From Candidatus Dojkabacteria bacterium (GTDB lineage: Bacteria; Patescibacteriota; Dojkabacteria; GCA-002793355), in the NCBI GenBank assembly GCA_015485585.1, contig WFTI01000005.1, forward strand, positions 1 through 51,898: a DNA stretch of 51,898 nt. Reading direction: 5' to 3'. How positions within the stretch are numbered: the stretch's first letter is position 1; every line of letters begins with the position of its first letter. Under the pieces are notes generated by a model. That model made no database searches and was not told where the DNA came from. It was given only the letters and a program-made list of their open reading frames with translations. Made by a program: the position numbers and the translations under genes. Below are positions 40,201-41,273 of the stretch, piece after piece.

Positions 40201-41273
40201 GTGGTCAGATATATTTTCAGCCTTCAGATATTACAGCTGATAATCAGCTTAAGGATTCGCCTGAACTGGTTTTTAGAGGAAAATATGATTCAGATGCTAC
40301 TACTGGTTTTGCGACGGGTACGTATGATTTTAAGGTTAAGAACATAATAGAATCAACGACACCTACAGCAAGGTTATCGATACAGAACAATGCAGGTACG
40401 GAGCTAGTTGTGATAGATGAAAGTGGTAATGTGGGGGTGGGGACGACGAGTCCTACTTATAAACTCCAAGTGGGTACAGCGGGTGATGGTACGTCAGCTA
40501 TTGCAAATGCATGGAATACTTTCTCAGATATCCGTTGGAAAGAGAATATAGAAGAGATTGATTCTCAGGAGGCTTTAGAAACGGTTCTTAATTTGAGAGG
40601 AGTTAAGTTTGAGTGGAAAGAGAGCGGTAAACCTTCGATAGGGTTTATAGCGCAAGAGGTTAAAGATGTGATCCCTGAGATTGTGTCACAAGATAAGCAG
40701 GGGTACTATTCATTAGATTACACGAAGCTTATCCCATACCTTGTTGAAGCCATTAAAGAGCTTGCTAAACAGGTCGGTAGTACGGAAGGTTCTTCTGGCT
40801 TTTCTTACTGGCTCCTTCAAGATAATGTGCTTACTACTAACTATAGTCTTTATCTTCCATCACTTACGGTAGGTTCGTTTAGTGCCACAGAAATTAATGT
40901 TTCAATAGCCAATGTCACAAATTTGACTGTTGGTAATAACGCCTTTTCTGTAGATTCATCAGGAAACCTTATTGTAGCAGGTGATGCCCTAATAAATGGT
41001 ACTCTAGAGGTTCGAACTATAATCTCTGACACCATAGAAACAAATACTATCAAAATAAAAGGAGACATGGCTTCAAAGGTTACTATACCTGCAGGTGAAA
41101 CACAGGTTGAGGTAGTTGTAGAAGATCTTACCCCTGATGATGTGGTTGTCGTATCACCAGTAGGTGCTTTTGTTTCATATAGGTTAATCGTTAATAATGG
41201 AAGCTTTGTTATCGAGTTGAGTAATGCTTTTCAAGAAGATGTAACATTTAACTACATTATTCTTAAGAAGTAA
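37224..41273 (+). CDS. Giant membrane-anchored tail-fibre-like surface protein, paralog A (discoidin-like insert, Peptidase_S74 module)
   Basis: 1349 aa. N-terminal TM helix. Seven G(N)VGIGT..P..L.(V/I) motifs. F5/8 type C-like segment (..RVKLQADGNDVYRVEYSVDGTTWSLL..ARYVRVYA..VSELEV). S74 block FSDIRWKENIEEI..LRGVKFEWK..IGFIAQEVKDVIPEIV..YSLDYTKLIPYLVEAIKEL. Confidence 0.8.
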   Translation: MGEGGFKTFLLGFIRLTLGFVVLLSLTVSVVYYLFRCEGVLGKYMGYCSFGAQADVANLVASRVKDPENSEDSQDQKSGVGGLMLYVVGNLSKKSQDWYREQFYEVIRDECGASGVVRYDGERLYCGRVEAEFDEVEGLLYVDGRVLDLSVFWDDRDSQRLYFDRTTKVLVIEGGNSVDLSALVDRYKAGTGLLLTDNTFSLDAILSDLKDVDTKGAFAGDVLKFDGSKWIPASDQDTTYTAGGQLLYLTGTTFKIREGTLTDGRLCSFDSTFGLVCNTDSTIFLQTLNLSGDVLSISDGNSVTFTNWDTDVTDDVRNLSDLLDVTLSTPSASDVLVYNGTEWVNQPLTFLALSDTPSTYGPAGYLLQSTGSGIAYVDPLTLDVGYWKRVGTTLSPRNAGDDVVLNPGETLSIQDFSIGGLIYASNNGLLVQDAQNLYWDDTNKRLGIRTSNPLGALHIADNSTYVEKVSVAKTVTSNYTPSFGSVKNIVDSIYAPEGHRWDDANYAVRLDAANTSILTIDLGQVYDIERVKLQADGNDVYRVEYSVDGTTWSLLFEAGTLGAGLLTRDSGPLTPVAARYVRVYAVGGDGLYSVSELEVQATVARSQLFVDNYKVGIGTLTPVGNLHIADKVYGIHQSLFLTSNAIRFRKDGISFFSIVGPDDTQNYLTLSYFSRPDYSADARRNILTLTPTGNVGIGTTTPAKKLDVIGDVKITPDGTARSFYFYNDGGFPAISADFVIRVRQRMEVWGNYVDIRSSGGTQMIYLPPSGNAFFMQGNVGIGVTNPSAKLHVYGGQPTYLKLESNASGGEASFIWKNLTGESYFGLAGATDQLLIGGLVSAGDLVLSHRTGGKIIFSADSAYSEAHLTISETGNVGVGTSTPNDKLDIKGGNLRLTFTGAGDARKLLFVPTGQHTSSNVAVGIIGMRAAGDIFDRAKIEFAQVWDGTYTDYEIRFFVTDGGVATRRAMTINKDGNIGIGTTSPFGILDILKDGGQIYFQPSDITADNQLKDSPELVFRGKYDSDATTGFATGTYDFKVKNIIESTTPTARLSIQNNAGTELVVIDESGNVGVGTTSPTYKLQVGTAGDGTSAIANAWNTFSDIRWKENIEEIDSQEALETVLNLRGVKFEWKESGKPSIGFIAQEVKDVIPEIVSQDKQGYYSLDYTKLIPYLVEAIKELAKQVGSTEGSSGFSYWLLQDNVLTTNYSLYLPSLTVGSFSATEINVSIANVTNLTVGNNAFSVDSSGNLIVAGDALINGTLEVRTIISDTIETNTIKIKGDMASKVTIPAGETQVEVVVEDLTPDDVVVVSPVGAFVSYRLIVNNGSFVIELSNAFQEDVTFNYIILKK

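Follow-up and report, generated by a model that had tools for sequence, protein, structure and literature searches.

An S74 chaperone domain in tandem with a β-rich neck and a tailspike-type knob in two paralogous fibres of a Candidatus Dojkabacteria genome

The closest known system to the proteins described here is the group of mosaic adhesive trimer (MAT) fibres of Bdellovibrio bacteriovorus, with Bd3182 of the S74 type and Bd2133 of the NS74 type (PMC10769870). MAT fibres are chromosomal, trimeric, exposed on the cell surface and similar to phage tail fibres, and their mosaic bodies contain repeated G-x-G-T-x-x-P-x-x-x-L loop motifs. A MAT fibre ends in an S74 domain with an SDxxxK motif or, in some members, in a trimeric β-sandwich. 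The cellular fibre Bd3182 has been shown to cleave itself at S782, which unmasks the tip and is blocked by the S782A substitution, while in the NS74 fibres the β-sandwich stands in for the S74 chaperone (PMC10769870). A 51,898-nt stretch of the genome of Candidatus Dojkabacteria bacterium (contig WFTI01000005.1; the whole stretch is called the window here) encodes two paralogous fibres, open reading frames (ORFs) A and B, both on the forward strand. They resemble MAT fibres in being chromosomal, mosaic and phage-tail-fibre-like proteins, predicted to be trimeric and surface-exposed, with similar loop motifs and an S74 domain carrying the SDxxxK motif. However, whereas a MAT fibre has either the S74 domain or the β-sandwich, A and B have both in tandem, with S74 first.

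Some other differences from the MAT fibres are found at the N-terminus and in the host. By description, MAT proteins have a signal peptide and a conserved β-rich domain of ~130 residues, while A and B have a hydrophobic helix and a Cys pair. The MAT host is a predatory proteobacterium and the host of A and B is a monoderm bacterium of the candidate phyla radiation (CPR). S74 matches to Bdellovibrio genomes were found. A regular-expression scan locates four GNVGIGTTxPxxKLxV-type loop motifs in A and three in B, and these resemble the capping loop V-G-G/N-x-x-x-P-x-x-x-L of S74 fibres and MyRF (PMC10769870). The last such motif of A, GNVGVGTTSPTYKLQV (40425..40472), lies 17 residues upstream of the cleavage Ser.

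The phage chaperones of the K1F endosialidase (3GW6) and the T5 L-shaped tail fibre share with A and B the fold, the Ser/Lys dyad, the Arg, an Asp or Asn at +1, the Gly and a C-terminal zipper helix. In the phage proteins, however, S74 is terminal, whereas the cellular, putatively membrane-anchored A and B add ~160 residues after it. For K1F and MYRF, cleavage is reported to depend on the Ser/Lys dyad and the oxyanion Arg, on the position next to the Ser (N912) and on a conserved Gly (G956) (PMC3742443). The ICA domain of MYRF (7DC3; PMC3742443, PMC8326128) is the best structural match to the S74 part of A, and S74 is internal in MYRF too, where both cut parts persist. The topology is reversed. 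MYRF is anchored C-terminal to the cut and releases an N-terminal trimer, whereas A and B have their only hydrophobic helix at the N-terminus and would release the C-terminal piece; MYRF also has no knob.

The cleavage Ser is encoded by codon 40524-40526 in A and codon 45950-45952 in B. Translation from Ser to stop gives SDIRWK... (40524..41273) and SDIRFK... (45950..46699), each of 249 residues (the module) and each preceded by F, and no other S74 motif is present in any frame of the window. An earlier reading of this DNA from its letters alone (the sequence-only reading) had named these two codons, the F-S-D-I-R-W-K and F-S-D-I-R-F-K motifs and several further peptide strings, all of which are confirmed by translation. 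The S74/ICA intramolecular chaperone domain covers module residues 1–88 in A (40524..40787) and 1–86 in B (45950..46207), and the two domains are 57% identical. Pfam family PF13884 (Peptidase_S74, cut-off 22 bits) matches residues 1–54 of both modules with 62.5 bits for A and 60.4 bits for B, and the full-length proteins with 59.5 and 57.8 bits. In the AlphaFold2 (AF2) model of the 249-residue module, calculated for a single chain from a 37-sequence alignment, residues 1–88 have a predicted local distance difference test score (pLDDT) of 97–98 and end in a helix (66–88) with hydrophobic residues at heptad positions 70, 73, 77, 80 and 84. The catalytic Lys is at codon 40539-40541 in A and 45965-45967 in B; in A, the Arg is at +3 from the Ser, and Gly40 lies in the sequence IGFIAQEV. 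S1, D2, R4, K6 and G40 are invariant across the S74 family alignment. Ser and Lys are kept in all 15 inspected proteins in which S74 is followed by a knob, and on this basis self-cleavage of A and B is probably retained.

Structural comparison gives the same domain boundary. The S74 part matches the MyRF ICA domain (PDB entry 7dc3) in Foldseek with an E-value of 2e-6 and a probability of 1.0 over 107 columns, and also the K1F chaperone (3gw6). In the BFVD collection of viral models there are 263 matches at E <= 1e-3, among them matches with a root-mean-square deviation (rmsd) of 1.1–2.6 Å over ~88 residues. The best 50 of these 263 cover 83–126 columns, mostly 87–101, with one poor exception of 263 columns and rmsd 17. 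In sequence, the S74 part matches 36–37 PHROG tail-fibre families, and in nearly all of them the match stops ~1–25 positions before the end of the profile, while the remaining 157 residues have no PHROG match. Among 85 bacterial S74 ORFs, picked on S74 motifs only with one genome per species, the median length from Ser to stop is 118 residues; it is at most 155 in 73 ORFs and at least 186 in 11. A set of 96 long S74 proteins from a homology search has tails of 89–155 residues in 72 cases and above 185 in 24. A 50-residue loop of the K1F chaperone is absent from most ICA domains (PMC3742443). The 249 residues of A and B do not fit the phage-type terminal position, which is ~90–155 residues from Ser.

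These results support the sequence-only reading in its estimate of ~90 residues for the S74 core and in its statement that S74 chaperones are shorter than 249 residues, which is the normal case; S74 domains of about 250 residues with the same C-terminal fold are not the rule in any of these sets. Its description of the S74 site as internal stands, since 249 residues follow the Ser, but such a position is not unprecedented, because MYRF has it (PMC3742443) and 13–25% of the sampled bacterial homologues are long-tailed. The weight it gave to a length of exactly 249 residues does not hold. In family relatives, the tails from Ser to stop are 186, 220, 240, 240, 249 (L001), 273 and 509 residues, which speaks against an exact length constraint. 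The A and B modules align over their full length (43% identity, E 4e-59) with 11 gap columns, which fall in the S74 part (−2), the linker (+2) and the region near the end (+1/−2), and they are in register over residues 103–188. The equality of 249 and 249 thus comes from compensating indels within a roughly conserved architecture, and we reject it as a functional constant.

The part of the module after S74 consists of a linker with a β-rich neck and a terminal knob. In A, the linker and neck are module residues 89–180 (40788..41063), supported by the AF2 model, weak matches to lambda gpJ and substitution rates; pLDDT is only 60–77 for the monomer, with scattered strands. The counterpart in B (46208..46492) is 36% identical. 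The knob of A, residues 181–249 (41064..41270), is a six-strand β-sandwich with pLDDT 91–98, and a separate AF2 model of the last 102 residues gives the same six-strand sandwich. The knob of B (46493..46696) is 31% identical to that of A and is a member of the knob alignment. The structure prediction that had been proposed for the module thus resolves it into an S74 fold, a poorly modelled neck and a confident knob. The knob resembles the C-terminal β-sandwiches of phage depolymerases and tailspikes (K64-1 S2-4, 9k4a; Pam1, 7eea; Sf6, 2vbe), R-pyocin fibres and H-type lectins in Foldseek. For 9k4a, 7eea and 2vbe the probability is 0.93–1.0 but the E-values are weak (0.03–0.3), with TMq (a template modelling, TM, score) of 0.40–0.48 and rmsd of 2.5–3.5 Å over 69–83 columns. 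The H-type lectins 2ccv and 4q56 match with a probability of 0.8–0.9 and rmsd of 6 Å. A profile of 16 knobs matches Pam1 tailspike 7eea over residues 597–663, its last 67, at E 0.005. Relatives P0103 and P0099, linked to the module of the window at E 3.8e-4 and 5.2e-6, pass the cut-off of K1-lyase_C (PF24146, 27 bits) with 32.2 and 28.3 bits, and two more relatives, P0023 and P0079, narrowly miss that of H_lectin (PF09458, 24 bits) with 20.8 and 19.5 bits. From these profile and model comparisons the knob appears to be related to phage tailspike C-terminal domains of the K1-lyase_C and H-lectin-like kind. Three other matches were discarded: on the extra module, DUF7263 (16 bits, cut-off 27) and Big_6 (E 0.37) are noise, and the antibody heavy chain 8vur, the top PDB match of the knob profile, consists of two 9-bit pieces that reflect generic Ig-like similarity.

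The C-terminal domains of tailspikes and depolymerases (PF24146; 9K4A, 7EEA, 2VBE) and the H-type lectins (PF09458, 2CCV) are, like the knob as modelled, terminal β-sandwiches of ~70 residues, and they belong to trimeric fibres. However, the tailspike domains directly follow a catalytic β-helix and not an S74 chaperone. In depolymerases they are reported to be essential for trimerisation and to help receptor binding (PMC11652154). The tip of lambda gpJ (8XCJ/8XCK; PMC11101478) shows the same order as the cassette, with a helical shaft, a β-sheet prism and an Ig-like receptor-binding domain. The similarity is marginal, though: the gpJ central fibre is matched from the neck into the beginning of the knob, at E 0.04 in sequence and at E 3e-4 with a TM score of 0.12–0.18 in Foldseek, and gpJ has no S74 and is a virion protein. 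The neck is probably a trimeric β-prism or a spacer.

The extra region is a real but rare family, as judged by sequence comparison. The last 157 residues of A used as a query against 1.84 billion representative proteins give 13 matches at E <= 1e-3, all at the extreme C-terminus of their proteins. Among them is P0094, a near-identical relative of B, at E 2e-17, showing that the similarity beyond the S74 core is real and not due to chance. The sequence-only reading had pointed to an alignable region beyond S74 and had taken it for a conserved extra module; both points hold, as the module has its own β-sandwich, its own family that also occurs without S74, and a knob with a low ratio of nonsynonymous to synonymous substitution rates (dN/dS). 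Among species-representative genomes, relatives of the full-length module are found only in a Candidatus Dojkabacteria metagenome-assembled genome (MAG), and relatives that share S74 alone occur at 313 loci in Bacteroidota, Bdellovibrionota, CPR phyla and others. The fibre bodies differ among family members, with an F5/8 type C domain in A and FG-GAP, DUF2341 or YadA head repeats in others. The knob also ends fibres without S74 (P0097, P0103), and in relatives it is followed by an SH3_3 domain (P0078) or long acidic tails. In L082 (22-642) and L083, neck and knob form short ORFs of their own, with a stop codon upstream of each. These contigs are only 0.9–1.4 kb, so the short ORFs may be frameshift errors.

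Long tails after S74 are of several kinds. The knob family kind occurs in L001, L004, L069, P0023, P0053, P0059, P0078 and P0079; a C-terminal domain of the type IX secretion system (T9SS) in P0051, L026 and L041 of Bacteroidota; an acidic low-complexity tail in L005 and L021; and the remaining long tails are other β domains.

Comparison of A with its orthologue in the related genome L081 separates the parts of the cassette. The dN/dS is 0.10 for the S74 domain, 0.43 for the neck, 0.07 for the knob and 0.05 for the fibre body (residues 100–880). The knob differs at only 2 of 69 residues, whereas the neck differs at 15 of 92 (Fisher p = 0.008). The contrast in both measures marks the knob as a constrained domain and the neck as spacer-like.

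We lean, with modest confidence, towards a role in assembly, in which A and B are fibres with an S74-neck-knob cassette and the knob acts in the first place as an extra cap for trimerisation and registration that leaves together with the chaperone. A and B would be paralogous fibres on the surface of a Dojkabacteria-like CPR bacterium, encoded on its chromosome and anchored in its membrane through a single N-terminal helix per chain, and each would end in a cassette of a catalytically intact S74/ICA chaperone of ~88 residues, a variable β-rich neck of ~90 residues and a tailspike-type knob of ~70 residues. Three exported chains would associate at the C-terminal end, where the knob together with the S74 heptad helix would fix the register, and the fibre would then fold toward the anchor. 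When a correct trimer has formed, its Ser/Lys dyads would cut the F|S bond just before 40524 in A and 45950 in B. The cut would unmask the tip of the mature fibre, which stays anchored, and free a trimer of the 249-residue piece (~27 kDa per chain) with the chaperone as base, the neck and the knob; the knob may have a lectin-like role after release. The depolymerase C-terminal domains and the NS74 β-sandwich do trimerisation or chaperone work, so a knob placed behind S74 could strengthen the registration of anchored chains in the same way.

Several points weigh against this assignment. We infer cleavage, trimerisation and surface display of A and B from sequence. Most fibres (73 of 85) manage with S74 alone, which raises the question of why an extra cap would be needed. 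Structural comparison of the knob gives weak matches (E 0.03–0.5, TM 0.4–0.5), and a Pfam search with the knobs of the window matches no family, including PF24146 and PF09458. The neck is modelled poorly and as a monomer only. Finally, knobs at the end of S74-less fibres or in separate short ORFs, and the SH3_3 domain or acidic tails after the knob, point to a function beyond folding.

The last point leads to a reading that we rank second and consider possible, if on the unlikely side, namely that each gene makes two products. Here S74 would be a MYRF-like release switch, giving an anchored fibre and a free or wall-associated trimeric mini-fibre of helix bundle, β-prism and lectin-like knob, whose targets would be glycans on the host or on the producing cell. 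In fibres without S74, the knob is necessarily part of the mature protein, and the short ORFs of L082 and L083 and the domains or long tails added after the knob in relatives such as P0078 agree with a product of its own, as do the sub-threshold H_lectin matches in relatives. However, the short ORFs may be artefacts of the small contigs, the knobs of the window match no lectin family, and no binding site or sugar-binding motif was identified in the knob. The constraint on the knob, close to that on the fibre body (0.07 and 0.05), also fits this reading, but purifying selection is equally expected on a folding cap. In lambda gpJ, shaft, prism and receptor-binding domain follow one another much as helix, β-rich neck and Ig-like knob do here (PMC11101478), and Ser and Lys are never lost; the benefit of a diffusible trimer to the cell, on the other hand, is not evident. 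A broader form of this idea, which we offer as a tentative and rather unlikely proposal, is that S74 in CPR bacteria is a processing joint of a self-cut trimeric polyprotein, yielding an anchored fibre with an unmasked tip and a released mini-fibre that binds host-cell glycans. Such a mini-fibre might serve as a scout, as a primer of the host surface or as a wall-bound docking piece.

Two further readings rank below the assembly cap and the two products. If S74 only trimerised the chains and did not cut them, the knob would be a permanent distal adhesive tip, in line with the β-sandwiches that are retained as tips in phage tailspikes and NS74 MAT fibres (PMC10769870, PMC11652154) and with the knobs that end S74-less fibres. 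This is improbable given that the residues needed for cleavage (S, D, R, K and G40) are all invariant in the family, that no S74-then-knob protein among the 15 has lost Ser or Lys, and that the S74 domains with these residues that have so far been tested, K1F, T5, MYRF and Bd3182, all cleave (PMC3742443, PMC10769870). Much the least probable, to the point of being hardly credible, is that A and B are tail fibres of a phage or prophage, with the extension as a phage receptor-binding tip. The PHROG matches of the S74 part and the tailspike neighbours of the knob would agree with it, but the N-terminal membrane helix, the extra module without a PHROG match and the full-length relatives in a CPR MAG all stand against it. 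So do the genes around A and B, namely miaB, rtcB, rplJ/rplL and one for an FNR-like reductase; L081 has the same succession of miaB, A, rtcB, FNR-like gene and B. On this synteny with housekeeping genes in two genomes we reject a prophage origin and take A and B to be mosaic cell-surface fibres and not prophage genes.

CPR bacteria, or Patescibacteria, spend their lives in contact with other cells to which they attach, and few of the molecules involved in this contact have been identified. The likeness of A and B to the prey-recognition fibres of Bdellovibrio and to phage receptor-binding proteins makes them candidates for host attachment. S74 and a tailspike-type knob in tandem lie outside the published MAT and phage schemes, and a literature search found no study of an S74-neck-knob layout in Patescibacteria. 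The question posed by this layout is whether the knob is discarded with the chaperone, as in the assembly-cap reading, or is a second product. In the latter case S74 here would be, like that of MYRF, a phage folding domain turned into a processing switch, and protein engineering might make use of the cassette as a compact trimerisation tag that releases itself.

As a whole, A is a putative membrane-anchored mosaic surface fibre of 1349 residues (37224..41273), taken from the ORF list and supported by an identical public protein (P0003) and by the syntenic orthologue in L081. Its N-terminal hydrophobic helix, residues 8–34 (37245..37325), was found by reading the sequence; with 27 residues it is long for a cleaved signal peptide and is a putative membrane anchor. 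The fibre body contains a discoidin-like domain of F5/8 type C (38721..38999), which matches PF00754 with 39.4 bits and PF22633 with 35.1 bits. ORF B (43271..46699) encodes a paralogous fibre of 1142 residues from TTG 43271 or 1130 residues from ATG 43307, and its near-identical public relative P0094 starts at the position of ATG 43307. The Cys pair after the N-terminal helix is kept in both fibres, as C-x4-LGKY-x4-C in A (CEGVLGKYMGYC; window 37224-37380) and C-x4-LGKY-x3-C in B (CNSPLGKYRSLC; window 43307-43450), and relatives P0095 and P0100 have a Cys pair at the same N-terminal place. This pair may form a disulfide-locked base of the stalk.

The orthologue of A in L081 (P0004, 1817 residues) is 468 residues longer. 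The N-terminal 904 residues are 94% identical and the last 249 residues 91% identical, and in the stretch between them (window 39840-40520) P0004 contains extra GNVGIGTT-type repeat units. The fibre length thus varies among close relatives by expansion of repeat units between conserved ends.

Some tails and neighbouring frames in other genomes show further arrangements. In Bacteroidota, the T9SS C-terminal sorting domain (PF18962) follows S74 and a coiled coil in P0051, L026 (6001-6800) and L041 (6001-6650), and self-cleavage of S74 would strip the secretion tag, which lies after S74. A T9SS-like sorting role of the knob was considered and set aside, as no similarity of the knob to PF18962 was seen and T9SS is not known from CPR bacteria. 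In L083 (2-874 and 894-1394), the neck-knob ORF comes after a fibre-like ORF in a different frame, whose end carries a DVAEEY...GDIV motif and an acidic coiled coil. Such a motif is typical of another autoproteolytic chaperone, but Pfam and PDB sequence searches of the upstream ORF give no support and we make no claim from it. A second recurrent extension after S74, of ~110 residues (tails of 196–201 residues), occurs in P0029, P0030, P0048, P0050, P0052 and P0060. It ends in ...YTPTSSxDxxGxxGNIxxDDxYLYIKxNxGWKRxxLExF, bears no relation to the knob, and no Pfam domain is recorded for it. In the window, a 271-residue ORF without a Pfam match lies between miaB and A (36377-37192). It is missing from L081, where ~80 nt similar to its 5′ end are left in a 153-nt spacer (9850-10000), and it is either a strain-specific orphan gene or marks a recent deletion.

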